A stretch of DNA of 31,273 bases from Candidatus Micrarchaeota archaeon (lineage in GTDB: Archaea; Micrarchaeota; Micrarchaeia; Anstonellales; Bilamarchaeaceae): contig JBFMCO010000017.1 of assembly GCA_040754495.1 (NCBI GenBank), positions 1-31,273 of the forward strand, in the 5' to 3' direction. The notes under the pieces were generated by a model, which was not told the DNA's origin, made no database searches, and saw nothing but the letters and a program-made list of their open reading frames with translations. Shown here in pieces: positions 2,576 through 30,406 of this stretch (position 1 is its first letter; each line of letters starts with the position of its first letter). The position numbers and the translations under genes were made by a program.

Positions 2576-2938
2576 TCACTTCTTTAGATGCTGTATCTCG
2601 ACAAGGCGCTCGCCCTCGGCTCCCTCCATGATTGCGCATATCCTCTCGCCGTGCGTCCCCACGTCCTGGAGCCGCGTGCCGTCAAGGTTCCTTGAGATGA
2701 AAAGATAGAGGTCCATCCTGCCCACCCCGGCCCGCAGGGAAACCGAGAACCTGACTGTCTCGGTAGGGCGCTCTCCGCCCATGGAGTCGCGGCAGAGCTG
2801 CCGCTCATAGGAGAATCCTTTCTCAAGCAGGGCGCTCAGCACCTGCGAATCCGCATGGGCGATGTAGTCCGGCTCGGGCTTCGTCACAAGGACTTTCAGG
2901 CTAGCGCTTCCACTGGCTGACGATGTCCGGGCCCGCAT
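2576..2938 (-). CDS. Hypothetical protein
   Basis: 120-aa ORF. Its TATA-like AATTTATAA overlaps the stop of the upstream gene, 22 nt before the ATG. Confidence 0.65.
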   Translation of the reverse strand: MRARTSSASGSASLKVLVTKPEPDYIAHADSQVLSALLEKGFSYERQLCRDSMGGERPTETVRFSVSLRAGVGRMDLYLFISRNLDGTRLQDVGTHGERICAIMEGAEGERLVEIQHLKK

Positions 2939-2960
2939 GAAGTGATATCGCAGGACGAGA

Positions 2961-3329
2961 TTATAAATTTTTGTAACCGGCCTCGGGGACGAACCTGCCG
3001 GCTTTCACGAAATGGACTTTCACGAGGCCGGCCTCTTCCGCGGCCTTCGCCATGGCGAGGAGCACGGGCCCGTCATTTATCGGGTCGTAGCCCGGGATGG
3101 GGCTTCCCTTCAGGTGCCTGCAGAAGAAATCCGCAAGTTTTGCCTCGGTTACCCCGTCTGCGAGCTCAAGATAGTGCCGGTCACGGCTCACATCGGAATA
3201 GCCGGAGGCCACGCCGAATCCCCCTGCGAGAAGGACGCGGACACGCGCAAGGTCGCGCGCTTCGGCGGCGCCGTTCCCATTGAAGCGCTTCCGCGTTTCA
3301 TCCTGCGGGGCACGTTTCTGCTTGAGCAT
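2961..3329 (-). CDS. Hypothetical protein (start revised to MLKQKR)
   Basis: The track gives 3404. ATG 3329 follows an A-rich TATA-like tract at the usual spacing. Confidence 0.6.
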   Translation of the reverse strand: MLKQKRAPQDETRKRFNGNGAAEARDLARVRVLLAGGFGVASGYSDVSRDRHYLELADGVTEAKLADFFCRHLKGSPIPGYDPINDGPVLLAMAKAAEEAGLVKVHFVKAGRFVPEAGYKNL

Positions 3330-3744: not shown

Positions 3745-5982
3745 TTATCTGACTCCGAGGAAGTCCGTGCCGAGCACGCGCGTGTTGATTATGCCGATCG
3801 ACTCGTGGAGCAGCCTTCCCTCAGAGGTCTCGTACGTGCCCATGTAGCCGTTCGGGCCGAAGAGCTGGGACTGGAATGTCGGCGCCTGTTTGTTCTGCCC
3901 GTAGAATCTTATGGCCTGGTCGAACGTCCCGGGCGGAGTCCGGTACTCGTTTCCGTAATCGAGCAGGGAAGTCCCCTCCGGGGGCTGGGCGATGGCCACG
4001 ACATGCGGGCCGTTCCGCGTGTTCACCGACGCGACTATCGTCGGTATCCCGTTCGAGCGCAGGAACTCGGCCATCAGGTGGTGGATGCCGGCGCAAACAG
4101 CTATGCCGTTTCGCAGCTCGTCCGGCAGCGGGTCGTTCGGACCGTGGCTGTTGTACCATCCGACGTAGCGCTGGATGTACGAGTACATCGTGTCAGTGTT
4201 GGCGCCGGATATCCTCTGCACCTCGGGGTCGAAGAACCGGGTGTTGTTGAGAGCCTCCCAGGCGTTGTTCGCGTACGCCACCTGCTGCAGGAACGCCCCG
4301 AGGAACCTTGCGGCCATGATTTTCTCGTTTGTGGACGCGCTGCCGTAGGTGCTGGAGAATTCCGCGAAGCTCGTGGACTCCATTATCCTGGACTTGGCCG
4401 CATTCACCTGCGCGTCGATTTCAGCATTGCCGGAGCGCCCGAAGCCGTATGGCCCGGGGTCGGCCTGCGTCGGGAAGGACGTTTCCGCGAACCTGACGCC
4501 GCCCGACTGCATATGCTCGTACCTGAACGTGTTCGTGGAGTTGATGTACCTTCCGCCGAAGACGAGATTCAGGCCCATGAACGCCATCGGGTCCCACCTG
4601 CCGCCGAGCGCGTCGTCCCAGCGGATGGCGCCGCCGCCAACCCAGATGTCCCCGGAGACGTTGTCGCTGAAGTTTATCGTCCTCGTGAGGCGGGCGCCGA
4701 CCCGCTGGTTGAGCACGCCCCAGTCGCCGAAGATGCGGGCCGTGTACTGGTCCTCGTAGAACCGGTACTGGGCGCCGAACTCGACGTCCTGGAACTGCGG
4801 CCTGTAGTTGCCGACGAACGCGGTCTTTATCGGGTCGTTGGCCGCGAAATAGAAATTCGGCATGACGTACAGCAGGAAGTTGTGGAACTCCGCCGACGCC
4901 CCGAAGGCCATGTTGAAGTATATGTCGTCCCAGGCAGGGTACGAGAGCGCGCCGCCGATTATCCCGCCGAGCCTGAGCCTGAAGTTGTCGCCAATCGGCT
5001 GGGAGTATCCGAGGCCGACCGAATGCGACGTGTAGAGGACCGAGGGCATGTTGCCGACGGCCGCGACGCTGCCGTAGTAGTTGAGGCGCAGCCTCCAGAC
5101 GCTCACGCCGGGCCGCAGGAGAAGCCGCGCGAACGGCGCCGGCTGCTCCCCGAACCACATGTTTCCCGCGTTGAAGACCGCGTCGAAAGGCCGGGCGTGG
5201 CTTCCGCGGTAGGTGTATCTTATCGCGCCCCATACGGACGAGCCGGCTTCGTTGGCGTAAACGTTGCCGCCTATGTCCCATGCGTTGTCCAGGCTTATCG
5301 GCCTCCTGCGGCCTGCCAGGTCGACGTTGTCCGGATAGGGGCACAGGGCGGGGTCCTGGTATCTCGCGGCATTCACGATGCCTGAATCGGCATCTAGGCT
5401 GCCGGAATTCGGGCCGGTGGTGGCGACCTCGCCTTCGGCCTGTATGCGGGGCTCCTCGCGCGGGCGGGAGCTTGCCGGGCGGTCAGTGTAGGCGAAGCTG
5501 AGGCGGGCAGTCCCTCCCTCGCCCTGCTGGACGGCAAAATCCCTGAAGCCGAGGCTGTCGATAACGCCGACGGCCCCGCTGCGCGTCCCATCATAATTTA
5601 CCCTGAAGGTCGCGCTCTCCTGCCTTCCCTGGGACGGGACCAGCGTAACGCTGAATTCCACTCCTCGGTCGTCCACCGCGGAAACGTTCACACCAGCGAT
5701 TGTGGCAGGGGACACCTGCTCGCCCATGACACGCTCGCTATTGAGAAGGGAGAGCACCTCCGTGCCCAGGGACACCTGCCCGCTGAAGGGGCGCATGCGC
5801 GGGCTGCGTTCCGCCGCCCCCGGGCCGGCCTCCTGGGCGTACGCGGTATTGTAAAGCAGCGACGCGCCCATGAAAAGCGCTGCGGCTGCGGCCGCAGACG
5901 CCGCCCTTGCCATTACTTTCCTTGAGAATGAGCCCTTTCCTTCTTCCTTCTTCGAGACGATATCCGAATGAGACAACCTCAA
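3745..5982 (-). CDS. Secreted protein: signal peptide, N-domain, putative beta-barrel, transglutaminase-like Cys protease domain
   Basis: Ala-rich signal ending AYA|Q. Residues ~233-476 have alternating hydrophobic/aromatic strands. C630 (IAVCAG), H660 (GPHVV) and D675 (LLDYG) fit the transglutaminase-like triad. TTG start with AGGTGG upstream; ATG 5913 is an alternative. Confidence 0.8.
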   Translation of the reverse strand: MRLSHSDIVSKKEEGKGSFSRKVMARAASAAAAAALFMGASLLYNTAYAQEAGPGAAERSPRMRPFSGQVSLGTEVLSLLNSERVMGEQVSPATIAGVNVSAVDDRGVEFSVTLVPSQGRQESATFRVNYDGTRSGAVGVIDSLGFRDFAVQQGEGGTARLSFAYTDRPASSRPREEPRIQAEGEVATTGPNSGSLDADSGIVNAARYQDPALCPYPDNVDLAGRRRPISLDNAWDIGGNVYANEAGSSVWGAIRYTYRGSHARPFDAVFNAGNMWFGEQPAPFARLLLRPGVSVWRLRLNYYGSVAAVGNMPSVLYTSHSVGLGYSQPIGDNFRLRLGGIIGGALSYPAWDDIYFNMAFGASAEFHNFLLYVMPNFYFAANDPIKTAFVGNYRPQFQDVEFGAQYRFYEDQYTARIFGDWGVLNQRVGARLTRTINFSDNVSGDIWVGGGAIRWDDALGGRWDPMAFMGLNLVFGGRYINSTNTFRYEHMQSGGVRFAETSFPTQADPGPYGFGRSGNAEIDAQVNAAKSRIMESTSFAEFSSTYGSASTNEKIMAARFLGAFLQQVAYANNAWEALNNTRFFDPEVQRISGANTDTMYSYIQRYVGWYNSHGPNDPLPDELRNGIAVCAGIHHLMAEFLRSNGIPTIVASVNTRNGPHVVAIAQPPEGTSLLDYGNEYRTPPGTFDQAIRFYGQNKQAPTFQSQLFGPNGYMGTYETSEGRLLHESIGIINTRVLGTDFLGVR

Positions 5983-9151: not shown

Positions 9152-10169
9152 AGCCGAGCATCTTCGAATACCCGTGCTTCTTCCTTCCCTTCCAGCTCCC
9201 TTTGTGGTAGGCGTAGCTGGCAAGGAGCGGCAGCACGGACGTGGCCTCGGCGTACACCATCTGCTCGTATGTCGTATCGACCTTGCCCCAGGAGCTCGCC
9301 TCCTTGAGCGTCGAGCTCGAGCAGGCGCCGTCGCGGACGTCCGCCACGGTTATCTGTATGGCGTACTTGTGCATCGGGACCTCCTTGCCGAGGATTTCCG
9401 CGCACACGACCGTGTCCTGGGCGAAGTTCTTGGGGACTCCGCCGCCTATCATTAGCAGGCCGGACGTCGGCGTGCTCATCTTTATTTTCGTCAGCTCGTA
9501 GAAGTCCTTGACAGAGTCTATGGAGACGTGCTTCTCTGGGTGCCGGTGCTGGTGCAGGACGAGGCCGAAGCCCGCGCTCGAATCCGAGAACGCGGGGCAG
9601 AAGATGGGGACGCTGTTCTCGTATGCAGCCTGGACGAGCGAGTTCTTCTTCTTGGAGTTCATGGTCAGCCATTTGCCCATCTCGCGGATGAACTCGCGGG
9701 AGGAGTATGGCCGCGGCTCGAGCGAGTCCGCGATAATCCCGACAGTCTTGTCGCACTCCTGGAGCTGCTCCTCGTCGATGAACGTGTCGTATATCCGGTC
9801 TATGTAGCGCCTGCGCAGCTCCATGTCGTTGACGAACGGGGTGCCCTTGTAGTGCCTGAAGCCGAGGGCCTCGAAGAAGTCCATGTCCACGATGCTCGCC
9901 CCGGTGGCGACGACGGCATCCACCATGTTATTCTTCACGAGGTCGGTGTAGACGTCCATGCAGCCCCCTGCGCTCGTGCTTCCGGCGAGCGTGAGGATTA
10001 TGGCGCATTCCTTTTCCGCGAGCATCATGTCGTATATCTCGGCCGCGCGGCCGAGGTCCCTTGATGTGAAGGACATTCTCTTCATCGCTTCCACAATCTG
10101 CGTCGCGTCGATTTTCTTTATGTCAATATGCTCTATCGGCGTCTTCAAGTAATCCTTCTTGTCCATCAT
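9150..10169 (-). CDS. Deoxyhypusine synthase-family protein, resembling the bacterial SpeY/homospermidine-pathway type
   Basis: TLAGSTSAGG, VATGASIVDMDFFEALG, GGGVPKNF, EASSWGK (catalytic Lys). GAGGTG SD precedes ATG 10169/10166. Confidence 0.9.
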   Translation of the reverse strand: MMDKKDYLKTPIEHIDIKKIDATQIVEAMKRMSFTSRDLGRAAEIYDMMLAEKECAIILTLAGSTSAGGCMDVYTDLVKNNMVDAVVATGASIVDMDFFEALGFRHYKGTPFVNDMELRRRYIDRIYDTFIDEEQLQECDKTVGIIADSLEPRPYSSREFIREMGKWLTMNSKKKNSLVQAAYENSVPIFCPAFSDSSAGFGLVLHQHRHPEKHVSIDSVKDFYELTKIKMSTPTSGLLMIGGGVPKNFAQDTVVCAEILGKEVPMHKYAIQITVADVRDGACSSSTLKEASSWGKVDTTYEQMVYAEATSVLPLLASYAYHKGSWKGRKKHGYSKMLG

Positions 10170-10212
10170 AAACACCTCTGAGAATCCATCGGATAATTCG
10201 GGGCATCAGGAT

Positions 10213-10602
10213 TTAAAGCTCATCCCTGATTTTCGCGGCCATTGCCTCCAGCTCCGAGGGAGCGGCTTTCTTCGCCCTGCGGAAGTCCAGCTCGCCCCCG
10301 GCGTTCAGGGGCACGAGGTGCAGGTGGGCATGAGGGACGAGAAAGCCCTCGACTATCATCCCGATGCGCTTCGAGCGGCTTGCCTTCTGCAGGGGGGCGG
10401 AAAGCTTCCTTGCAGCAGCGAAAAGGGCCGAGTAGGCCTCATCGTCCATGGCAAAGACGGCATCCTCGTGCTTTTTGGGGATGATAAGCGTGTGGCCCGG
10501 ATTGATGGGGCTTATGTCCAGGAAAGCGAGGAACCGCTCATCCTCCCAGATTTTCGCGCTCGGTATCTTGCCCTCTGAGATTTTGCAGAATATGCAGTCC
10601 AT
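10213..10602 (-). CDS. HIT-family nucleotide hydrolase
   Basis: MDCIFCKI start, PGHTLIIPK, HAHLHLVP histidine triad. TATA 23 nt upstream. Confidence 0.95.
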   Translation of the reverse strand: MDCIFCKISEGKIPSAKIWEDERFLAFLDISPINPGHTLIIPKKHEDAVFAMDDEAYSALFAAARKLSAPLQKASRSKRIGMIVEGFLVPHAHLHLVPLNAGGELDFRRAKKAAPSELEAMAAKIRDEL

Positions 10603-17677: not shown

Positions 17678-18217
17678 CTAATCCGCGTGCCCGCCCTTCC
17701 CTTCCCCGTGGGCAGCTCCCCCGCGTATCTTCATGTAGGTGTGGTGGGAATAGAGCAGAAAATCCAGCATCGCGTCCACATACGCGCGGGCGGCCCGGAC
17801 ATCGTCCGCGTCATAGTCCCTTTTCTCCATGGCCTCCGCGAAACGGCCCTCGACTTCCTCCTTGACGGCATTCGAGAGCAGGGAGGTAACCTCGCCGCAG
17901 TTGCCGGTCCCGATGGCGCTCTCGGCCCTCGGAATGACCGGGCCGGTGTCGAGGCCGGCGGGCTTGAGGCCATTGTATGGCGCGCCCTCGCCTGCCCGGT
18001 GGAGGCGCACGACAGTCTCGAAGAACCAGAGGTCCGCGACCTCGGCCGCATCCGCCCCCTGCTTCCTGGCCTTCATGGCCTTGCCGAAAGCGGCCCGGAC
18101 TTCGCCCTCCGCCCCTTCATGCACCCATGGCAGGACCAGATTGACATTCCCCTTCTCAAGGGCCTTCATGGCGGCTTTCACCACAGGCCCGTCCAGCGTA
18201 TCGCAGTGCGGCGGCAT
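17678..18217 (-). CDS. DUF6448-like protein
   Basis: HCDTLDGPVV, FFETVVRLHRAGEGAPYNGLKPAG. GGTGA SD before ATG 18217. Confidence 0.85.
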   Translation of the reverse strand: MPPHCDTLDGPVVKAAMKALEKGNVNLVLPWVHEGAEGEVRAAFGKAMKARKQGADAAEVADLWFFETVVRLHRAGEGAPYNGLKPAGLDTGPVIPRAESAIGTGNCGEVTSLLSNAVKEEVEGRFAEAMEKRDYDADDVRAARAYVDAMLDFLLYSHHTYMKIRGGAAHGEGKGGHAD

Positions 18218-18326
18218 TTCATCACCCATCAGCCAACTGCACCGGCATTTAAATTTTCGACGATTGCAGAACATTCCGCTTGACTTCCGACAACATTTTA
18301 AAACTGGTGCCCGGCAACAAGGCCCT

Positions 18327-20042
18327 ATGGCGGCAGAAACAGGGCAGGAACCGGACTACGACTTTGAATCTGAGAAGGGGTTGAACCTCGTGAGGGTGCA
18401 GCTCGCCCCTTACAGCAGCATAACGGGAAGGGTATACAGGAAGGCGCCGTCATTCCCGATGGACTCGGATGCGAAATGGGGGTACTTCACCCCGATGGAC
18501 GGCTTCGTTCCGATAGACGCCATCGTCAACACCATGTTTTCGCCAGATGTGGATTACGGCGCATCAGGCTTCGAGGGCGTGAGGCTCCAGAGGACGAGGT
18601 ACGGGGACGGATTCATTGAGCTGGCATCCAATATCAGGAGGCTCGCGTACACGAACCTTGCCTTCGACCTCTCGCTTGTCAGCGGCACCATGGCGCTCTC
18701 GGACGGCTCCGACGTCGCAAGAATCGAGCACCTCCAGAGGACGCCGCAGGAATTTTTCGACGACGCACGGAGGAACCTCGAAAAGGACATAGAGATGGGC
18801 GTCGATATCGTCTTCAAGGACGGGAGCAGGAAAACCGCGAAGGTCCCCTTCCCCCTCACCGCGCGCTTTAGCGACGGGGACAGGAGCGTCATGCCGATGG
18901 AGTTCGAGGCCGCTATATGCTCGCTTGCCATCCTGAACCGGCTCGTCCGGGGAGGGGTTTTCCCGGAAAATGAGATAGGACTGATTCCGGGCGGCTACTT
19001 CAGGCCTGGCTTTTCCTATTCTGGCGTGGAGGGGCTCAAGGTGCCGACCGCGTACCTCAAGGACGGAAAACTGCTCTTCAGGCCCAAATACCTCAAGATA
19101 GGGACGCTGCCCTGGGGGCCGTATCTGCCGGAGCAGGGATACAGGACCGGGCTGGACGTCCTGGTAGCCCCGTTCCCCCGCGCGGACGGCGCGATGCCGG
19201 TCTGGCAGAAGGTGGGCGGCGTGTACGTGAATTCAGCAAGGAACATCAACATCGCGATGATGCTCAAGTTCGGCGAGATTCTGGCCTGCAACCACGAGGA
19301 CAGGATAGTCGAGGGCTCCGCGGAGAACATAGTCATCCTGCTCACCCACAGGGAAACGGGAAAGCTGAAGGCTTACTTCCCGCCGCTTTCCGCGAACATA
19401 CTTGCCGGCACGACGCGGGACCGGGTGTTGAGGGTCCTCGGGGAGGGGCTCAGCGCCGACGGGATGAAGGCGGAGCTGGTGATGGAGGCCCCGCGCAGGA
19501 GATACCTCCTGGACTGCCTCGAGGGCAAGACCAAGTGGGATGTTTCCGCGATCGTCCTCATGGGGACCGGCGTAGGCCTCATCCACGCGCGGTCGCTGAC
19601 GCACAACCCCGAGCTGAAAGACTGGATGGGCCTTAACGAGCTGCGCTCCGAAGAGGCGGCGGCGGACCCGATTATCCTCCGGAAAATCAGGGAAACGGAA
19701 AAGAGGTATCCCATAAACGGAGGCGTCCAGCACCCCTTCGTCGCCGCGCTCAAGAGGGCATATGCCGCCTACGCAATCGGGGACAACGGGAGCAGGATAA
19801 CGCCGGCATACGATATGGACTACCATATGGCCGAGAGGATTTTCGGGGTGGGCCTTGACGAGGTTTCGGACAGGGACTTCCGCTCGAAGGCGGATGGCGG
19901 CTACTTCAGGGAAAGGATAGACGGCGTAACCCACCCCGACGAGCTAAAGGCGAGATATAAGGAGGCAATCAGGGTAATAACGAAAATGAACCGGCTGTGC
20001 CAGGAAAGGAAGGGCGAGCCGGTCGCGTTTCCAAGAAGATAA
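18327..20042 (+). CDS. Extended class IV PLP aminotransferase (IlvE-like), 571 aa
   Basis: YGASGFEGVR, KVGGVYVNS (PLP Lys), EGSAENI, ILAGTTR, GTG. Start revised to ATG 18327, after a TTTTAAAA promoter. Confidence 0.85.
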   Translation: MAAETGQEPDYDFESEKGLNLVRVQLAPYSSITGRVYRKAPSFPMDSDAKWGYFTPMDGFVPIDAIVNTMFSPDVDYGASGFEGVRLQRTRYGDGFIELASNIRRLAYTNLAFDLSLVSGTMALSDGSDVARIEHLQRTPQEFFDDARRNLEKDIEMGVDIVFKDGSRKTAKVPFPLTARFSDGDRSVMPMEFEAAICSLAILNRLVRGGVFPENEIGLIPGGYFRPGFSYSGVEGLKVPTAYLKDGKLLFRPKYLKIGTLPWGPYLPEQGYRTGLDVLVAPFPRADGAMPVWQKVGGVYVNSARNINIAMMLKFGEILACNHEDRIVEGSAENIVILLTHRETGKLKAYFPPLSANILAGTTRDRVLRVLGEGLSADGMKAELVMEAPRRRYLLDCLEGKTKWDVSAIVLMGTGVGLIHARSLTHNPELKDWMGLNELRSEEAAADPIILRKIRETEKRYPINGGVQHPFVAALKRAYAAYAIGDNGSRITPAYDMDYHMAERIFGVGLDEVSDRDFRSKADGGYFRERIDGVTHPDELKARYKEAIRVITKMNRLCQERKGEPVAFPRR

Positions 20043-22930: not shown

Positions 22931-24616
22931 TCAGCATGAATGGATGAAGGTCAGGGGCTCCAACTTGTCAAGCCTGCAGAACCCGAAGCGCTCGAACTGG
23001 ACGATGCCCCCTGCCGCGAGGGGCGCGCACGAAGGCTCGCAGAATCCCTTCGACTCGTGCAGGCTCTCCGGGTTGATTTCGCCTTTTGAATCGAGAAGGT
23101 CTCCCGGCGTGACGACCGTGCACTCAATTCGCCCGTCGCTCACCCACTGGAGCTTTTTCTCTACCGTCGAATCCGGTGCGAGCTCGCCGAGCAGCCTTTC
23201 GCCTTTTTTGAGGAGCTTCACGTTGCAGAGGTCTTTCAGGCGGAATATTTCCCCTTCAGCCAGGTTCCTGGCATCCGCGCCTGGGATGAATACGTTGCCG
23301 GAAACCGGCAGGCTCCGGATTCCCATGTCTTTCTTCGGGTGGAGCTTCAGCTCAATCGTCTTCTTTTCCAGCCCCTTCACTTCAAGGGCCACCGGCTCAG
23401 GGACGAAGAAGTAATGCGGCGAAACCGGGTCGAGCAGCTTCCGGTTCTCCGCAAGCAGCGCCTCCCAGTCCGGCTCGCTCTCTACTTTCGAGATGCCGAA
23501 GGAGAGGACGAATTCCCTTATCGCCTCGGGAAGGATGCCGCGCCGGGCGAGCCCCTTCAGCGTGGGCATCCGGGGGTCGTCCCAGCCCCAGAGCTTTCCG
23601 CTTTCGACAAGCGGGCGAAGCAGGCGCTTGCTTATCGGCGCGTTCTTTATGCTGAGCCTGGAGATGGATATCATTTTCGGGACAGTAAGCCCGAGCTTTT
23701 GGAGCAGGAAAACGTAGAGCTCGTCGCGCAGCTCGTACTCCTTAGAGCGTATTGGGTGCGTGATGCCGAGCAGGGAATCCATGACCGCGCCCTGGAAGTC
23801 GTATGTGGGCCAGACGCGGTATTTTTTCCCCTGCCGGTAGTGCGGCGCCGTGAGTATCCGGAAGAGCGTGGGGTCCCTCATGACCGTGTTCTGGGATGCC
23901 ATGTCCCCCCTGAGGCGGACGGTAGCGCCGCCTTCCGGGGTCTTCCCTGAAAGCATGTCCGCCCAGCCTGCAAGGTTATCAGCCGGCTTTTTCGAGCCGC
24001 ACGCGCAGCGCCTCATCTCCTCGCGGCCCTTGGAGATTTCCTCCTGCGCGCAGGTGCAGACGCAGCCCTCCCCGTCCTTCAGGAGCTTCTCGCAGAGGGA
24101 ATACATCTGCGGAAGGTAGTCGCTGCAGTATTTCTCGTCGTCCCAGTCCAGGCCGAGCCACGTCATGCCGTCCCTTATCGCGGCGGTGTATTCCTCCTTC
24201 TCTGCCTCGGGATTGGTGTCGTCCCACCTCAGTATGGCGCGGCCATTGTATCTCCTCGCAATCGTCCATGAGAGGCAGAACGCCTTGGCATGGCCGATGT
24301 GCGGGTAGCCGTTCGGCTCGGGCGGGAACCGCGTCACGACCCTGCCTTCCACAGCGCCCTCGATTGCGAGCTCTTTCTTCCCCTCTTTTTTCTCCGCGTA
24401 CTCGAATCCGGACATCTCCTTCTCGATGTCGCCCTTCTGGAGCTTTGATACGCGCGCGATTTCCGCGCTGATTTTCGCCATCGTGGCCTTCATATCCTTC
24501 TTGCAGTCCGGGAATTCGGCTATGACCTTGCCGACTACGGCGCCGGCATTGGCCCTGCCGTAGTCGAAGGCGTTCTTGAGGACGTGCTTGCGTATGATTG
24601 AGTCTAAGTCGGGCAT
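22931..24616 (-). CDS. gltX: Glutamate--tRNA ligase (archaeal type)
   Basis: RFPPEPNGYPHIGH (HIGH), WPTYDF, ISKR, DDPRMPTL.GL.RRG, QFERFGF. Confidence 0.96.
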   Translation of the reverse strand: MPDLDSIIRKHVLKNAFDYGRANAGAVVGKVIAEFPDCKKDMKATMAKISAEIARVSKLQKGDIEKEMSGFEYAEKKEGKKELAIEGAVEGRVVTRFPPEPNGYPHIGHAKAFCLSWTIARRYNGRAILRWDDTNPEAEKEEYTAAIRDGMTWLGLDWDDEKYCSDYLPQMYSLCEKLLKDGEGCVCTCAQEEISKGREEMRRCACGSKKPADNLAGWADMLSGKTPEGGATVRLRGDMASQNTVMRDPTLFRILTAPHYRQGKKYRVWPTYDFQGAVMDSLLGITHPIRSKEYELRDELYVFLLQKLGLTVPKMISISRLSIKNAPISKRLLRPLVESGKLWGWDDPRMPTLKGLARRGILPEAIREFVLSFGISKVESEPDWEALLAENRKLLDPVSPHYFFVPEPVALEVKGLEKKTIELKLHPKKDMGIRSLPVSGNVFIPGADARNLAEGEIFRLKDLCNVKLLKKGERLLGELAPDSTVEKKLQWVSDGRIECTVVTPGDLLDSKGEINPESLHESKGFCEPSCAPLAAGGIVQFERFGFCRLDKLEPLTFIHSC

Positions 24617-24650: not shown

Positions 24651-25457
24651 TCACTTGCCCGCGATGAGGGCGCCCTTGTGGTAAATCCTGCCGTCCCCGA
24701 TACAGTCGGAAACCTCTCCCAGCTCGCCGTCAAGGTGTATCTCCCCGGCCTTCATGTAGCCCCCTATGTTCTTCCCGGGCTTGCCCATCAGGCGGATGGT
24801 ACCGCCTTCCATCATGCTTCCCAGCGCATGGCCGGCATTCCCTTTCACCACCAGTTCGCCGCCCTCCAGATGCCCCGCTCCAAAGCCAGCGTTTCCTTCA
24901 ACGATGATAAGTCCGCCTGCCATCCTGTGCGCGGGATGGTCGCCTGCATCGCCTTCAACCACGATGCTCCCGCCAGCCATCCCATAACCCAAGCACTCCC
25001 CGATGCCGCCTTCGATGATGACGTTCTTCACGTTCTTGTAGCCGAAGTCGTGCATGGGCGCCGAAAGATGCTTTGTCGGAATGATATACGCGATGTCCGG
25101 CCCGCAATTCACAAGGGCGCTCAGGAAAAGCCCGGCCTTTTTCGGGAACTCCGGGCGGTCATCATAGGCGGAAAGGGCGATGCAGAACTTCTTCACGTCC
25201 TGCGGCGTGTATGCGATGCCTTTCAGAAGCTCGCAGGCCTGCGCATACGGCTCTTCGAGCACCTCGAGCGTCTGGTCGGGGTAGGCGCAATCGAATTTCT
25301 CGAACGCTCCCATGAGGCGGGCAAGCGCCTGGTCTTCCTTGACTTCGACGTTCTGGACCGCCTTTTCGGCCTCCTTCCTGAACCTGCCGAAGCGGCTCGC
25401 CGCGCGCGTCATGTGCAGGCCGGTTCCCTCTGCCGCCCTTAATTGGTACTGAGTCAT
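24651..25457 (-). CDS. GXGXG beta-helix repeat protein #3 (FwdC / GltB C-terminal-like repeat)
   Basis: About 5-6 19-aa repeats (IVVEGDAGDHPAHRMAGG...). ATGA overlap with the upstream paralog. Confidence 0.85.
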   Translation of the reverse strand: MTQYQLRAAEGTGLHMTRAASRFGRFRKEAEKAVQNVEVKEDQALARLMGAFEKFDCAYPDQTLEVLEEPYAQACELLKGIAYTPQDVKKFCIALSAYDDRPEFPKKAGLFLSALVNCGPDIAYIIPTKHLSAPMHDFGYKNVKNVIIEGGIGECLGYGMAGGSIVVEGDAGDHPAHRMAGGLIIVEGNAGFGAGHLEGGELVVKGNAGHALGSMMEGGTIRLMGKPGKNIGGYMKAGEIHLDGELGEVSDCIGDGRIYHKGALIAGK

Positions 25458-26098
25458 ATGAGAACACCCCGATGATAAATGCGCCCGCCTTCCGTATTCA
25501 TCCCGAGGCCCTCCATCTTCCCAAGGACGCTTATGCTGCCCCCGCTCATTCCCTCGCCGAGGAAAGGCCCGGAATCGCCGCTTATTACTATTGAGCCGCC
25601 GGACATGTACGCCCCGGCCTCCTTTCCCGCGTTCCCGCGCACGAGCAGGCGGCCTTTTTTCATGAAGGCGCCAAGGCTTTCGCCCGCATCGCCGTAGACT
25701 ATGAGGTTCTTCTCGTTGTAGCAGCCGAGGCATTCGTAACCCGTGGAATAGACACGATACGTGCGCGATGGGCCGGTGTTGGCAAGCGCGCTTAGGAACA
25801 TGCCTGCGATTTCAAGCTGGCGGGTGATGCCGCTGAGAGCGATGCTAAAATCAGCCACCTCGCGGGGCGAGCACTGGAGGCCGCGGACACGGTCCTCGAT
25901 GATGGGATAGTTGTCAAGGAAAAAACCCCAGCCGAACCGCAGGCTGCTCCATAGCGACAGGATGGCTTCGAACCTTTCGCTCCGGCTGACGGAGGGCGCC
26001 CCTGCGCGGCCCTCGGCCTCGGGCTTGTAGCCGCCGAATTTCTTGCCGGCTGCCAGCTCCGATGGACCAGCGCCTTCTCGACCAACAAGTGCCCTCAT
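25454..26098 (-). CDS. GXGXG beta-helix repeat protein #2
   Basis: LIVYGDAGESLGAFMKKGRLLVRGNAGKEAGAYMSGG... repeats. ATGA overlap with the VWA gene stop. Confidence 0.85.
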   Translation of the reverse strand: MRALVGREGAGPSELAAGKKFGGYKPEAEGRAGAPSVSRSERFEAILSLWSSLRFGWGFFLDNYPIIEDRVRGLQCSPREVADFSIALSGITRQLEIAGMFLSALANTGPSRTYRVYSTGYECLGCYNEKNLIVYGDAGESLGAFMKKGRLLVRGNAGKEAGAYMSGGSIVISGDSGPFLGEGMSGGSISVLGKMEGLGMNTEGGRIYHRGVLI

Positions 26099-27816
26099 CC
26101 CCGAATCACCTTCGAAAGCGAGCTGAGGCTCCCGTGAGTGGCCCTTATCACTATGCCCGGGATGTCCTTCTCCTCATCGATGCGGCACACGCTGATGCGC
26201 GGGTCCCTTATCTCCCCAAGGGCCTGCTCGAAGCCGTGCGTGAGGATTATCGTGGCGCGGTTCAGCTCGGCCTTCTCGCTGAACAGGGCGAGCACCTCGT
26301 CAAGGTTGAATATGCCTCCGTCGGTGAACATGAGGAGGTCTATCGACTCGGCCGCAAGGGCGGTCGTGAACTGGGGGACCGAAAGCTCCAGCTCCTTCCT
26401 TATCGCTTCCCTCGGGACGTGGCCGAGCGCGCGCTCCGGATTGCTGGCGTAGAGTTCGGCCATCTCCGGCCCGAGCATTTTCCGCAGCATCTCGACGTCC
26501 ACAATCGTCCCGCCGCCCTGGTACGCGCTGATAGCCCCGAGCGCCGCGTCCAGGTCGCGGGTGTATGGGAGGTAGAAGGAGCTGCCGCTGAAGTTGATGA
26601 CGCCGATGGAGGAGCCGTGCAGGTGATAGGAGCGGGCCCCGCAATACGCGCCTAGAACCGCATAGGATTTGACCTCTTTCGGGATGGGCATGCTCGCGCT
26701 GCTGTCTATAACTACAAGGAGGTGCGGCACCTCGTAATCGCTCGTGCGTATCGGCCGCTCGGTAATCCGCACGCTTTTGGTGACGCCGGGCAGGTAGAGG
26801 CCGCCCGAGGTCTGGGGAAGCGCGAGGTTCGGGTCTTCCCCGGGCCTCCATTTCCGCGTGTCGCTCCAGGAGCGCACCGTCCCTTCGGTCTCGAGCAGCT
26901 TCTTCGTGACGACAAGCGCGTATCTCATCGAAAGCTGCCTGTAGTATTCGAGCACCTCCGGGTCGACCGGAAGCTCGCCTTCGGATGTGCCTATGGAGCG
27001 GGCGGCTGGCAGCTTCGGAGGCTCGGCGCCGTGCTTTTTCAGCCAGTCCTTCACCTTTTCGTACTCCCTCCTGCTGATGCGGTATGAAATCTCCCTGAGC
27101 GCTTCGCGCAGCTCGCCTTCGGAGGATTTGCCGAGGATTTCCATGATGTCGCAGTCGGAATGGTCGGGCCTGAGGGCCTTTTCGCCGCCGTACTTCTTTA
27201 TCATGTCCGCGATTATGTTGCCGAACGTCCAGAGGCCGAGCCTGAGCTTGGTCGTGTCCTCGGCCAGGAAGTCGATTTCCATCATCTTCTCAAGATACGG
27301 CTTCAGCTCGTCTTCGAGCGCGAATTCCCTGCGGGCCTGGCGGTGGAGATATGCGAGCATGACCTGCCGGACGTTCCTGTTGATGGGGTCGTCCATGACG
27401 GCCTGCATGGCCTTGCGCACGTCCAGGATGGCTGAGGTCCTCTGCTCTTCGAGCACGCTCGCGGTGTCGTTGGCCATGTCGGCGTAGGTCTGGAATATGA
27501 AGGAGCGGACCTCCAGGCTGAGCTTGTCGAAGAAATCATCTATCATCTTGCCGGCAAGAACGCACGTGCCGAGGTCCCGCGGGAACACCATGTAGTGGCC
27601 GATTTCGTGGGCGAATACCCCCTCAAGGCATTTTTCCTCGCTCATGCCCCCCCTGCCGCTGACCGTCTGGACGAAGCCCTCGTCCACGAGCGTCTCCTTT
27701 CTGCGGAAATCGAAGCACGCGCCGCCGTCAAGGTCCTTGACCACGCGGGGCTCCTTGAGCGGAGGGAAATGGTACCAGCCGCGGACGCGGTCCCAGAGCG
27801 CCTTGTGGTCAGCCAT
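26095..27816 (-). CDS. HExxH putative metallopeptidase domain plus C-terminal VWA domain
   Basis: AHEIGHY; MIDAS DSSAS, GGT, TDG. GGAGGGTG SD before ATG 27816. Confidence 0.88.
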   Translation of the reverse strand: MADHKALWDRVRGWYHFPPLKEPRVVKDLDGGACFDFRRKETLVDEGFVQTVSGRGGMSEEKCLEGVFAHEIGHYMVFPRDLGTCVLAGKMIDDFFDKLSLEVRSFIFQTYADMANDTASVLEEQRTSAILDVRKAMQAVMDDPINRNVRQVMLAYLHRQARREFALEDELKPYLEKMMEIDFLAEDTTKLRLGLWTFGNIIADMIKKYGGEKALRPDHSDCDIMEILGKSSEGELREALREISYRISRREYEKVKDWLKKHGAEPPKLPAARSIGTSEGELPVDPEVLEYYRQLSMRYALVVTKKLLETEGTVRSWSDTRKWRPGEDPNLALPQTSGGLYLPGVTKSVRITERPIRTSDYEVPHLLVVIDSSASMPIPKEVKSYAVLGAYCGARSYHLHGSSIGVINFSGSSFYLPYTRDLDAALGAISAYQGGGTIVDVEMLRKMLGPEMAELYASNPERALGHVPREAIRKELELSVPQFTTALAAESIDLLMFTDGGIFNLDEVLALFSEKAELNRATIILTHGFEQALGEIRDPRISVCRIDEEKDIPGIVIRATHGSLSSLSKVIRG

Positions 27817-28516
27817 ATAGCACACCCTCCGCCGACCAGAGGCCATCCACGACCTTCCGTTTTCCTATGAATATCCTCCCTCCGCAGGGCACGCAGCAAT
27901 CCTTGGAGATTGATTCGTAACCGCCCAGAAGATGTATTTCGCCCCCGTAAAGCCGGTCACCTACGTATTTACCTGCCTGGCCAAGGACAATGACCTTGCC
28001 GCCGTTCATCAGCGCGGCAAGACCGTCACCGGCATCGCCTTCTATGACAAGGCGGCCGCCTGCCATTTCCCTGGCACAGTCTGCGCCGACGTCCCCGGCA
28101 ACACGGACATTCTTGACATTTCGGAACGCGAAATATGCGACAGGCTCTTCGAGGAACGGCAGCGCAACGTGATAAATTTTGTGCCTGCCTTCGTTTATCA
28201 GGGCGGATAGGAACCACCCTGTCTTGGAATTGAGGTAACGCTCGTAAGGAAGGGCAGCGATGGGCAGGGCGAATCCGGCGACGTCATTTGGCGAGTATGT
28301 GAGTCCCGCGATAGCTTCTTTGGCAAGCCCGTAATTATCCGTGAACTTTGCAACGTCGTGACGGAAGCTGGCGGTAAAACGCCCCAGGAGCTCTTCCTGA
28401 AGGGGGTCCTTTTTCACGGCGATCGGGCGGACTGTGCCTTCCTGTTCTGCCCGGTACCTGCCGAATCGCTTTCCGGCTTCGCATGCCGTTCGCTCCTCGC
28501 TCCGGAAAGCGCTCAT
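27809..28516 (-). CDS. GXGXG beta-helix repeat protein #1
   Basis: VRVAGDVGADCAREMAGGRLVIEGDAGDGLAALMNGG... repeats. Starts 1 nt after the ATPase stop. Confidence 0.85.
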   Translation of the reverse strand: MSAFRSEERTACEAGKRFGRYRAEQEGTVRPIAVKKDPLQEELLGRFTASFRHDVAKFTDNYGLAKEAIAGLTYSPNDVAGFALPIAALPYERYLNSKTGWFLSALINEGRHKIYHVALPFLEEPVAYFAFRNVKNVRVAGDVGADCAREMAGGRLVIEGDAGDGLAALMNGGKVIVLGQAGKYVGDRLYGGEIHLLGGYESISKDCCVPCGGRIFIGKRKVVDGLWSAEGVLYG

Positions 28517-28517
28517 G

Positions 28518-29939
28518 CTAACTCTCCTCGTAGAACGCCTTCCGGTCCATCTCGCGCGCGTTCGCGACCAGGTCCTTCATGAGGGGGTGGTCGTGCCTGT
28601 CCGCCTTCAGCGCCGGCGCGTCTTCGGGCTTCAGCTCCCCTTTTTCGATTGCCTCGAGGTCCCGGACAAGCTCCTTCGAGGAGTCGTCCTCTACCGCAAA
28701 GCCCCTTTCGCCCGCCTCCCACCTTTGCAGGACCGAAATCAGGTTCTTCATGGGCTGGATGGCAGTGGTATAGCGCAAAAATACCTCGCTGACGAGCGTC
28801 TTCGCGAGATGGAGCATCTGGCTGTCCCTGCGCTGCGCGTTGCCGTGCTTGTTCTTGTAGTCGTCGCTGAAATCCGCCTTGTGCGCAAAGACATGCGGAA
28901 GGACGTACCTCACGTGGTCCAGTCCCGGAGAGCCGCCCATGAACCATGCAAGGCCCCTTGCATAATCCATCGCCGCCATCACGCTTCTCGGGCTGAAGCT
29001 GTGCCGGACGCTCACGCCGGCGTACATCTGGTCGTGCGTGTCCTGGCTTGCCGGGTCGGATGCCCTCTTGGTGCCGTACTGGGCCGAGTAGTTTATCTCG
29101 GCCATGAACGCCTGCAGGAACAGCATCGCGTCGTTGTCGAATTCCAGGGAGGCGATTTGTTCCCGGATTGCTTTCCGCTCGTCTTCGGTGAGGTGGCCCT
29201 CGACGGGCCTTTTCTTGAGCGCAGCCTTGAACTTGTCGTAGCCGAGGCCGAGGGACGAGACCGCAGAAGAGGTGAAATCCGGGCGGCACAGCTCCTTCTC
29301 CCTCGCCTCTTTCGCAGCATGGAAGTCGAAAATCACCATCGTCGAGAAGAACGCCTCCTCGGTCACTATGTCGAGCCTGTCTTTCAGGGCCGGCAGCAGG
29401 CCGTTCTCGTGGTTGCCTGTGCGCTCATTCATCGTGAGGAACGCTGGCTTCTTCCCCTCGAAAAGCGACTGGTTCTGGTAATTCCACCTGCCGGTGTCGA
29501 TGCCCTGGAGTATGACGTCCTGAGAATCGTAAGGGAGGCGGTTGGCTTCATCTATGTTAAGGACGTCGAGGCCGAACGAGCCCTGCCACACGACGCTCTC
29601 CTCGCCCCTTGCCAGCCTGCCGTAGTGCGGGCGGCCGACTATTTTCTCCTCGTATTTCTGCGGGTTGCCGCGTATCTCCATGGCATCGTAGAGGTCGTAC
29701 GGAAGGCCGGTCAGCCTTGCGGCCAGGATTTTCGCGCCGGTGGTCTTTCCCCACCCGGGCTCGCCGACGAGCAGGTGGTTCTTGTCCATCAGGCAGGAGA
29801 GCGCCATGAGCACGAGATTCCTGTGCATCAGCCTCCCGGCCGGCCCTTCGTCCAGGGGGGCGAAATGGAAGCGGCCGGCGATATCGCTGAGGGCCGAATA
29901 GACTTTTACCCTTGGTTCTTGAGTGGGAGCCATAATCAT
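28518..29939 (-). CDS. MoxR-family AAA+ ATPase
   Basis: GEPGWGKTT Walker A, LNIDEANR Walker B, TMN sensor I, ALKDRL Arg finger, SPRS sensor II. TTTTTAAA promoter at about 29973-29980. Confidence 0.9.
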   Translation of the reverse strand: MIMAPTQEPRVKVYSALSDIAGRFHFAPLDEGPAGRLMHRNLVLMALSCLMDKNHLLVGEPGWGKTTGAKILAARLTGLPYDLYDAMEIRGNPQKYEEKIVGRPHYGRLARGEESVVWQGSFGLDVLNIDEANRLPYDSQDVILQGIDTGRWNYQNQSLFEGKKPAFLTMNERTGNHENGLLPALKDRLDIVTEEAFFSTMVIFDFHAAKEAREKELCRPDFTSSAVSSLGLGYDKFKAALKKRPVEGHLTEDERKAIREQIASLEFDNDAMLFLQAFMAEINYSAQYGTKRASDPASQDTHDQMYAGVSVRHSFSPRSVMAAMDYARGLAWFMGGSPGLDHVRYVLPHVFAHKADFSDDYKNKHGNAQRRDSQMLHLAKTLVSEVFLRYTTAIQPMKNLISVLQRWEAGERGFAVEDDSSKELVRDLEAIEKGELKPEDAPALKADRHDHPLMKDLVANAREMDRKAFYEES

Positions 29940-29996
29940 CACTGTCTGGTGAGCTGATTATGGCAAATAGTGTTTAAAAAGGTATTTATGTGGATT

Positions 29997-30374
29997 CTAT
30001 GGCGTCAGGTCCGGCGCTTCCCGCCCGATGCCGCCCTTCATGCGCTGCGATACCCTCACTTCCCTTGGAAGCTCCTCGGACTTGCCGAGGCGCCAGGCGA
30101 GCACTTCATAGACATCATGCATGCAGAGCCGGTCATCGTCGCTGATAAGCAGCGGCCGGAGCTCCGGGTGCTCGCGGAGCATCTCGACGTAAGAGCCTTT
30201 GAAAAGCGAGAGGCGCACAAGGCCGTAGAGGGTGCCCGCCTGCTTGTCGTCTAGGGCGGAGAGGCTGCTCGAGAACTGCTGGAAGCCCAGGTTCCATGCC
30301 TTCCTCACGCCGAGCCAGATACGCCGGAGCTCCGGCGTGATGACCAACTTCTCGATTTTCTTCTCTACTGCCAA
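29997..30374 (-). CDS. Hypothetical protein (probable TTG start)
   Basis: The track start at 30404 abuts the TATA box. In-frame TTG 30374 has GGTG upstream. Confidence 0.6.
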   Translation of the reverse strand: MAVEKKIEKLVITPELRRIWLGVRKAWNLGFQQFSSSLSALDDKQAGTLYGLVRLSLFKGSYVEMLREHPELRPLLISDDDRLCMHDVYEVLAWRLGKSEELPREVRVSQRMKGGIGREAPDLTP

Positions 30375-30391
30375 TTGAACACCGTTAAGCC

Positions 30392-30406
30392 GATTGCCGG
30401 GCAATC
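30392..30406. promoter_or_regulatory. Operator-like palindrome GATTGCC-G-GGCAATC
   Basis: Perfect 7-bp arms directly next to TATA-like TTTAAG (30412-30407, minus strand). Confidence 0.45.

Follow-up and report, generated by a model that had tools for sequence, protein, structure and literature searches.

The window analysed here is contig C17 (31,273 nucleotides, nt) of a Candidatus Micrarchaeota genome of 1.63 Mb, which is distributed over 72 contigs and about 80% complete. On its minus strand, from 24651 to 29939, five co-directional genes lie head to tail and encode a MoxR-like AAA+ ATPase, a beta-helix protein (GX1), an adaptor in which a domain with an HExxH motif is joined to a VWA domain, and two further beta-helix proteins (GX2 and GX3; Table 1). 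We propose that this operon encodes a dedicated protein-handling machine, in which the metal ion-dependent adhesion site (MIDAS) of the VWA domain, or else the zincin-like HExxH domain, would read a short N-terminal tag and the ATPase would remodel or process the proteins that carry it. In our judgement about as much speaks for this proposal as against it. The most economical reading of the sequences is that the tag serves as an address label for a single ATPase/VWA-zincin machine.

The tag is a stretch of about 22 residues in the disordered N-terminus of the GX proteins and reads A-x-[KG]-[RK]-F-G-[RK]-Y-[KR]-P-E-x-E..V-R. It occupies residues 11-34 of GX1 (nt 28415-28486), 15-37 of GX2 (nt 25988-26056) and 16-39 of GX3 (nt 25341-25412). 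The first-pass annotation had spoken of three GXGXG paralogs; three are indeed present in the operon, and the genome as a whole was found to hold nine GX genes, six of them scattered singly, but only a single gene each for the ATPase and the VWA protein. All nine copies carry the tag, including the six scattered ones, one of which is truncated, and its F23 is invariant in all of them. The paralogs are 30-37% identical overall and the tag is their best-conserved part: for the eight full-length copies the mean pairwise identity is 0.46 in the tag, 0.17-0.23 in the flanks and 0.29-0.36 in the folded domains. Because they keep the tag, the scattered copies probably use the single machine in trans.

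The tag is shared by a second protein family. A regular-expression scan and tag-only hidden Markov model (HMM) searches of the six-frame open reading frames (ORFs) of the genome identified four further genes on contigs C32 and C5, here called famB, whose products of some 265-271 amino acids (aa) start with the same tag. Beyond the tag their sequence is unrelated to GX; they have no Pfam match, and the leads obtained from the Atlas are weak and unnamed. When all tags were included in the model, 13 ORFs were recovered at E<=2.3e-5, the next match having an E-value of 0.65. In a non-circular test, for which the model was built from the GX tags of other genomes only and run against the 16,985 six-frame ORFs of this genome, the first 12 places were taken by the complete set of nine GX copies and by all but one of the four famB copies. 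GX1 and GX2 scored 5.2e-4 and 8.4e-4 with this model (2.7e-8 and 1.1e-6 with the tag HMM), and two famB copies scored 1.9e-4 and 4.1e-4.

Moreover, relatives of the analysed organism have famB within the operon itself. In two genomes of the same genus, G304 (L012) and G284 (L039), the VWA gene is immediately followed by a tagged famB gene, and this in turn by the GX array; in G304 the VWA gene spans 72-1826, famB 1850-2650 and GX 2654-3325, and G284 has the same order. In other machine-bearing genomes the famB genes are interspersed within the GX arrays. Of 401 genomes, 50 have the C-terminal domain of famB; matches of more than 40% identity that run into the tag come from four genomes only, all of them machine-bearing, and the famB homologue L140 of a machine-less genome is without tag. 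The tag variants are specific to the genome and common to GX and famB, with 'AKGF..Y' in G284, 'AMANRF.RY' in G304 and 'A.KRFGRY' in the genome studied here. What appears to be new, as far as sequences can tell, is that the tag is shared across unrelated folds, that famB resides inside the operon in relatives and that the scattered copies keep the tag.

On contig C32 of the genome two tagged famB paralogs (23582-24376 and 28529-29341; L134:4583-5380 and 9530-10345), which are 56% identical, bracket a block of about 4 kb that includes a gene for a Hanks-type Ser/Thr kinase, and a gene for an Nramp transporter is located just upstream. The two tagged famB genes on contig C5 (31047-31714 and 31839-32582; L121) are arranged in tandem, the first of them with a frameshift near residue 130 that makes it a pseudogene or reflects an assembly error.

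The history of the tag can be followed into the bacteria. The single-copy bacterial partners start with N-P-F-E-E-F-K, a homologous motif of the form aromatic-x-x-aromatic, and intermediate forms such as N-P-F-S-K-L-K-P-E were found in one Micrarchaeota genome. The tag therefore goes back to the ancestral third component and did not arise as a side effect of recent duplication. Every sampled genome with four or more tagged copies has the VWA gene. This correlation between tag and machine, in which kin are not independent and several genomes are incomplete, is suggestive, not strict.

A scan of species-representative genomes with an alignment of the VWA family yielded 80 loci. They stem from Thermodesulfobacteriota/Syntrophia, Desulfobacteria, Latescibacterota, Gemmatimonadota and Nitrospirota, and also from Archaeoglobi, Methanocellales, Woesearchaeota, Marsarchaeota and Micrarchaeota. 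Clustering of all ORFs in these loci left three shared families only: VWA (80 loci), ATPase (73) and GX (73), and the trio is linked in 73 of the 80. Of the 401 genomes sampled from the phylum 15 have a VWA homologue, the figure for the genus being 5 of 28, and in nine of the ten loci that were fetched the VWA gene is flanked by ATPase and GX genes, with one, three, at least 10 or at least 11 GX genes per locus. The trio is a widespread, self-contained and rare cassette. The linkage of MoxR, VWA and GXGXG genes that had been put forward for survey thus exists in the phylum and across bacteria and archaea, with a number of beta-helix paralogs that varies from one to at least 12. The other possibility raised at the outset, that the GXGXG genes are scattered and unlinked, holds in one half: six paralogs of this genome are scattered, yet the linkage to MoxR and VWA is conserved.

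Bacteria and non-DPANN archaea almost always have one beta-helix gene, and the Micrarchaeota have expanded the family. The order of the genes is ATPase-GX-VWA in bacteria and Methanocellales and ATPase-VWA-GX in Archaeoglobi. In genomes of the same genus the locus is found at the same site, bounded by a 135-aa ORF on one side and gltX and a 175-aa ORF on the other, and its content differs: ATPase-GX-VWA-GX-GX here, ATPase-VWA-GX-GX-GX in G236, and ATPase, four GX, VWA and at least six GX in G118. In a tree the GX paralogs mostly cluster by genome, on long branches. The commonest flanking genes across the 80 loci (dxs, YicC, gmk, FtsJ/TlyA, methyltransferase, HD, FKBP and PilZ) each occur in at most 20 of them and were rejected as clues to function, being unrelated housekeeping genes in lineage-specific synteny. 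No description of the cassette was found in Pfam, NCBIfam or the literature, and none in the literature that combines MoxR, vWA and GXGXG or FwdC, in agreement with the first-pass view that the combination is undescribed.

The ORFs and junctions of the operon, taken directly from the sequence, are exactly as first described: a gap of 1 nt between the ATPase and GX1 genes, an overlap of 8 nt (ATGGCTGA) between GX1 and the adaptor gene, and an ATGA overlap at each of the adaptor/GX2 and GX2/GX3 junctions. The start of the adaptor is confirmed because its homologues begin with M-A-D-x-K..W. The five genes form one tight operon.

The ATPase matches the Pfam family AAA_5 (E 1.5e-7, 31.9 bits against a cutoff of 22 bits) and has a Walker A motif GEPGWGKTT (nt 29739-29765) and a Walker B motif at D130-E131 (nt 29547-29552). 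In an alignment of 31 members of the ATPase family G62, G64, K65, D130, E131, N171, R188 and R318 are invariant, and the catalytic motifs of an AAA_5-type P-loop domain (Walker A, Walker B, sensor 1, Arg finger and sensor 2) are thus intact. The equally invariant pair D187-R188 lies within a conserved LxDRxD motif, the position of which we take to be the Arg-finger region of the MoxR/chelatase ATPases, and the invariant S316-x-R318 is presumably sensor 2. A long C-terminal extension ends in a conserved D-H-P motif. The best solved relative of the family profile is the MoxR-type structure 2R44 (E 4.3e-9), followed by ComM and ChlI/BchI at around 1e-4. The single sequence retrieved no PDB chain at E<=0.1, its similarity to MoxR being weak, and showed no match to bpMoxR (PF20030) in Pfam. 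We classify the protein as a MoxR-like ATPase of divergent sequence. The bacterial and Archaeoglobi members of the aligned family have a C..C..GCHY..C cluster in the lid region, all cysteines of which are replaced in the Micrarchaeota ATPases, this one included. The ATPase gene adjoins the VWA gene in the window and in 73 of the 80 loci.

The AlphaFold2 model of the adaptor has a mean predicted local distance difference test (pLDDT) score of 80.1 and consists of a helical N-terminal domain (about residues 1-265), a beta-rich linker and a VWA domain (about residues 361-570). The MIDAS is complete: D371, S373, S375, T437 and D499 are invariant across the adaptor family (alignment A2), and its DSSAS motif is located at nt 26692-26706. 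A conserved insertion at residues 454-487 is modelled with low confidence. Pfam VWA_2 is matched below the cutoff (E 9e-4, 20.3 bits against 27 bits), and 29 of 31 family members match it. By VIA-align the fold was recovered with a Z-score of 15.2 and a root-mean-square deviation of 3.3 over 171 residues, dozens of VWA chains having Z-scores above 12; the top Foldseek matches of the domain are Rea1-MIDAS, and the VWA domain of NorD is also listed. The VWA fold is secure as modelled. For the adaptor family a profile search among 1.84 billion representative proteins returned 276 clusters (at 50% identity) with E<=1e-30. The longer homologues P0030, P0058 and P0018 contain linker insertions and are not fusions.

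The N-terminal domain of the adaptor has HEIGH at residues 70-74 (nt 27595-27609). In alignment A2 D113 does not vary and the two histidines, H70 and H74, are conserved to at least 90%; several bacterial adaptors lack E71 and read HAISH or LAISQ at this site. No peptidase family of Pfam matched below E 0.09. The Foldseek and VIA-align fold lists of the whole adaptor are occupied by matches to the VWA domain, and for the N-terminal domain the Atlas gave Zn_peptidase at a template modelling (TM) score of only 0.47, plus a cluster that contains Peptidase_M48. The domain is probably conserved as a metal site and not universally as a peptidase.

GX1, GX2 and GX3 match the Pfam family GXGXG (PF01493) with 32.0, 35.5 and 36.3 bits, two of the three above the cutoff of 32.5 bits (E 1.1e-7 for GX1 and 9.5e-9 for GX2). 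In the AlphaFold2 model of GX3 (overall pLDDT 90.6) residues 1-40 are disordered (pLDDT 45-66), residues 43-118 form a helical N-domain with an invariant F-L-S-A-L motif, and residues 123-267 form a right-handed beta-helix. The family profile matches the Fmd/FwdC chains with E 1.5e-46, the match being confined to the beta-helix, for which the top Foldseek matches are likewise FwdC (probability 1.00). Nevertheless, GX1-3 score far below the cutoffs of the FwdC equivalogs (42-63 bits against 130.65 for TIGR03122 and 31-53 bits against 340 for NF042910). For FwdA (TIGR03121) the best match in the about 80%-complete genome reached 25.6 bits against a cutoff of 392.75, FwdB not having been searched, and the only gene with a Glu_synthase FMN domain is on a different contig. 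The beta-helix genes lie outside fwd and glt clusters, whose partner subunits had been noted at first pass to be absent from the window. The scattered copies adjoin housekeeping genes, namely those for Rrp4, LonB, PmbA/TldD, EF-2, CysRS, GAPDH and RadA.

Some variant forms were encountered in the course of the analysis. A 151-aa GX copy on contig C65 (13662-14114; L119:6663-7118) has kept the tag and the helical N-domain and lost the beta-helix; it sits directly after a full-length copy. A canonical GXGXG protein of 421 aa on contig C44 (14-1279; L123) has neither the tag nor the F-L-S-A-L domain and is a different member of the GXGXG superfamily; its gene is followed by an unannotated ORF of 262 aa and then by genes for a C-N hydrolase and an amino-acid permease. 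Genomes of the phylum without a detectable VWA gene often encode fused doubles of about 510-520 aa in which the tag is degenerate or missing. Two of these, L128:3942-5504 (G277) and L129:4249-5775 (G358), consist of a helical N-domain and beta-helix repeated in tandem. Among proteins of 600-2000 aa that were searched with the GX alignment no fused forms were found, which is weak evidence.

Rea1/Midasin would be the closest mechanistic precedent for a machine of this type. Its MIDAS grasps the common N-terminal ubiquitin-like (UBL) handle of Ytm1 and Rsa4, after which the AAA+ ring applies force. It would share with the system described here a MIDAS placed on an AAA+ motor and a single handle on different substrates, and its MIDAS ranks first among the Foldseek results for the VWA domain. 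However, Rea1 is eukaryotic and consists of one giant polypeptide, the handle that it grasps is a folded UBL domain and not a linear tag, it has no zincin-like domain, and the homology shown between it and the adaptor is that of the VWA fold.

By analogy, the MoxR-like ATPase would be the motor, presumably as a hexamer, and the zincin-like HExxH domain joined to the MIDAS-complete VWA domain would be the adaptor for a set of partners or clients marked by the linear tag of about 22 residues. We infer from the sequences that it is the adaptor that reads the tag: most plausibly, an acidic residue of the tag would complete the metal coordination of the MIDAS, as in Rea1/Midasin, and the two aromatic residues would dock next to it. 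In NorQ-NorD the MoxR ring couples to the VWA domain and force is transferred through the latter (PMC13036017), and with a similar coupling the ATPase could pull on or remodel the tagged protein. The zincin-like domain may then clip off the tag in lineages that have kept HExxH, including this one. The machine might ultimately serve to assemble, activate or turn over the beta-helix and famB proteins. The tagged proteins could be clients destined for release, activation or degradation, or else exchangeable subunits by which the machine is directed at another target.

Several observations weigh against this proposal. Thirteen genomes without the VWA gene still have one or two related beta-helix proteins, some with degenerate tag-like N-termini; these genomes are 75-94% complete, and the ATPase was not searched genome-wide in them. 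A strict rule by which the tag occurs only where the machine is was therefore not upheld. Where they occur in one family, the genome-specific variants of the tag could stem from recent duplication or gene conversion and not from co-evolution with a receptor. Furthermore, the strict placement of a single GX gene between the bacterial ATPase and VWA genes is what one would expect of a stoichiometric subunit more than of a client; the fact that a reduced genome has 13 tagged proteins with two different folds speaks for clients or plug-in adaptors. As judged from the alignment, proteolysis cannot be the function of the whole family, because several bacterial members, with HAISH in place of HExxH, are without the catalytic Glu. 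The cleavage of clients by the metallopeptidase domain, as suggested in the first-pass annotation, has for this reason become uncertain, and in this lineage it is possible.

An association of an AAA_5/MoxR-like ATPase with a MIDAS-complete VWA protein is known from NorQ-NorD, CbbQ-CbbO, CoxD-CoxE and RavA-ViaA. The cassette differs from this class in having a third component that is always linked, the beta-helix protein with its tag, in the N-terminal HExxH domain of its adaptor and in the long C-terminal extension of its ATPase of some 470 aa; moreover, no client enzyme is encoded nearby and no match to the named families was obtained in NCBIfam. The class I chelatases (BchI/BchD/BchH and CobS/CobT/CobN) similarly combine AAA+, VWA and a third subunit. 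In the present case, however, the third subunit is a small beta-helix protein instead of a large porphyrin-binding protein, and the AAA-like domain found at the N-terminus of BchD is absent from the adaptor. The resemblance of the adaptor N-domain to CobT is an Atlas lead only, with scores <=0.9. FwdC/FmdC and the C-terminal domain of glutamate synthase are homologous to the beta-helix halves of GX1-3, which differ from them by the disordered tag, the F-L-S-A-L helical N-domain, a varying number of helix turns and the lack of a Fwd or GltS partner, where FwdA was searched and FwdB was not.

To our knowledge the GXGXG beta-helices, as seen in the FwdC and GltS structures, have no ligand-binding role, and this counts against an alternative explanation in which a maturation chaperone of the chelatase or NorQD type has the beta-helix protein as its fixed third subunit. 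In that case the true client would be an external metalloenzyme or complex, and in Micrarchaeota the tag would serve to plug the GX paralogs and famB into the motor as alternative specificity subunits. The strict single-copy order ATPase-GX-VWA with overlapping genes in dozens of bacterial lineages fits such a role, as do the relationship of the ATPase to both MoxR and ChlI/BchI and the Atlas connection of the adaptor N-domain to CobT-annotated clusters (score 0.89, TM by query 0.55). The Cys/His cluster of the bacterial and Archaeoglobi ATPases is suggestive of metal binding, but the Micrarchaeota, the very lineage with the arrays, have lost it. Metal insertion is a function of known MoxR/VWA pairs (PMC13036017); nevertheless, no conserved candidate for a target enzyme is found beside the cassette, and 13 specificity subunits for metal insertion are not to be expected in a reduced DPANN genome. 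We consider the chaperone explanation unlikely, while granting it a real share of the probability.

A role in conflict or host interaction, which the first-pass annotation had entertained, is considerably less probable still. The tagged proteins would then be diversifying effectors, sensors or decoys that are armed or activated by the AAA+/VWA/zincin module. MoxR-vWA ternary conflict systems with a variable third partner and shared adaptor modules do exist, as was described by Kaur, Burroughs, Iyer and Aravind in 2020 (PMC7159879), and these have the same logic of MoxR, vWA and a third partner. The patchy occurrence of the VWA gene in phylum and genus, the lineage-specific expansions on long branches, the growth and shrinkage of the array at one syntenic site among genomes of the same genus, and the presence of one truncated GX and one frameshifted famB copy are all in line with such a role. 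However, the third component of the systems of Kaur et al. is VMAP, iSTAND, FtsH or a beta-propeller with effector domains or effector-associated domains (EADs), none of which is present here, where it is a GXGXG beta-helix protein or famB. The word 'beta-helix' occurs nowhere in the text of that paper (PMC7159879), in which an HExxH-vWA fusion was not searched for. No recognisable effector, nuclease, protease or TIR-type domain was detected with Pfam in the system, there is no defence-island context, and the neighbours of both the operon and the scattered copies are housekeeping genes. PADLOC-DB gave zero families at E<=0.01 for all six proteins searched. Neither the viral contigs of IMG/VR nor the plasmids of PLSDB yielded a relative of the VWA protein, and PHROG returned a generic P-loop match only; on these latter grounds a mobile-element origin was rejected as well. 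The bacterial versions, finally, are stable, single-copy chromosomal cassettes.

That the genes have clustered by coincidence and that the GXGXG genes encode ordinary FwdC or domain-3 subunits of glutamate synthase has hardly any probability: many homologues are automatically annotated as 'formylmethanofuran dehydrogenase subunit C' and six copies of the genome are away from the machine, but the equivalog scores, the missing FwdA and distant Glu_synthase genes, the family-specific tag and helical N-domain that FwdC does not have, and above all the linkage across phyla in the neighbourhood survey contradict it.

The surroundings of the operon are those of an ordinary chromosomal region. Its GC content equals that of the rest of the window and is unremarkable, and it is surrounded by core genes, among them those for ribonucleotide reductase, FBPase, deoxyhypusine synthase and RsmB. 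As motif readings only, TATA-like elements are present where a promoter upstream of the operon and a separate one for gltX had been assumed; that of gltX, which follows the operon at a spacing of 34 nt, is TCTTAAAAC, 22-30 nt ahead of the ATG. The product of the upstream ORF is found with 52-56% identity directly upstream of the ATPase gene in two relatives of the same genus (L029 and L030, by tblastn). It has no Pfam, PADLOC or PHROG match and was not found beside more distant systems; the ORF may belong to the locus as a sixth gene specific to the genus, or be no more than a syntenic neighbour. Elsewhere in the window there are two large ORFs, one of 745 aa without a convincing Pfam domain (3745-5982, minus strand) and one of 737 aa with a sub-threshold Aminotran_4 match only (17829-20042, plus strand).

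Table 1. Genes and sequence elements of the operon and its upstream flank, in window coordinates.
Feature	Position	Strand	Product	Remark
MoxR-like AAA+ ATPase	28518..29939	-	473 aa	
GX1, tagged FwdC-like beta-helix protein	27809..28516	-	235 aa	
HExxH-VWA protein (adaptor)	26095..27816	-	573 aa	
GX2, tagged beta-helix protein	25454..26098	-	214 aa	
GX3, tagged beta-helix protein	24651..25457	-	268 aa	
TATA-like box TTTTTAAA	29973..29980	-		34-41 nt upstream of the ATPase ATG; motif reading only
Second A/T-rich element CATAAATA	29983-29990	-		upstream of the ATPase gene; motif reading only
Upstream ORF	29997..30404	-	135 aa	no known domain

Few AAA+ machines are as poorly understood as the MoxR/VWA pairs, and the fact that their clients are mostly unknown has blocked mechanistic work. 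In the case presented here likely clients or partners are encoded beside the motor and carry a short conserved tag, which makes direct and cheap experiments possible. The cassette occurs across many uncultured anaerobic lineages, with at least 276 sequence clusters. Moreover, 13 tagged genes together with the machine constitute a large investment for a host-dependent archaeon with a genome of about 1.6 Mb, and the system probably matters to it. Tentatively, and with somewhat more doubt than assurance, we suggest that the operon may be the core of a private protein-addressing pathway, in which a portable tag directs proteins to an AAA+/MIDAS/zincin machine that extracts, unfolds or clips them. 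If true, this would represent a previously unknown form of targeted protein processing, with an ancestral one-client version in anaerobes and a multi-client version in the Micrarchaeota.

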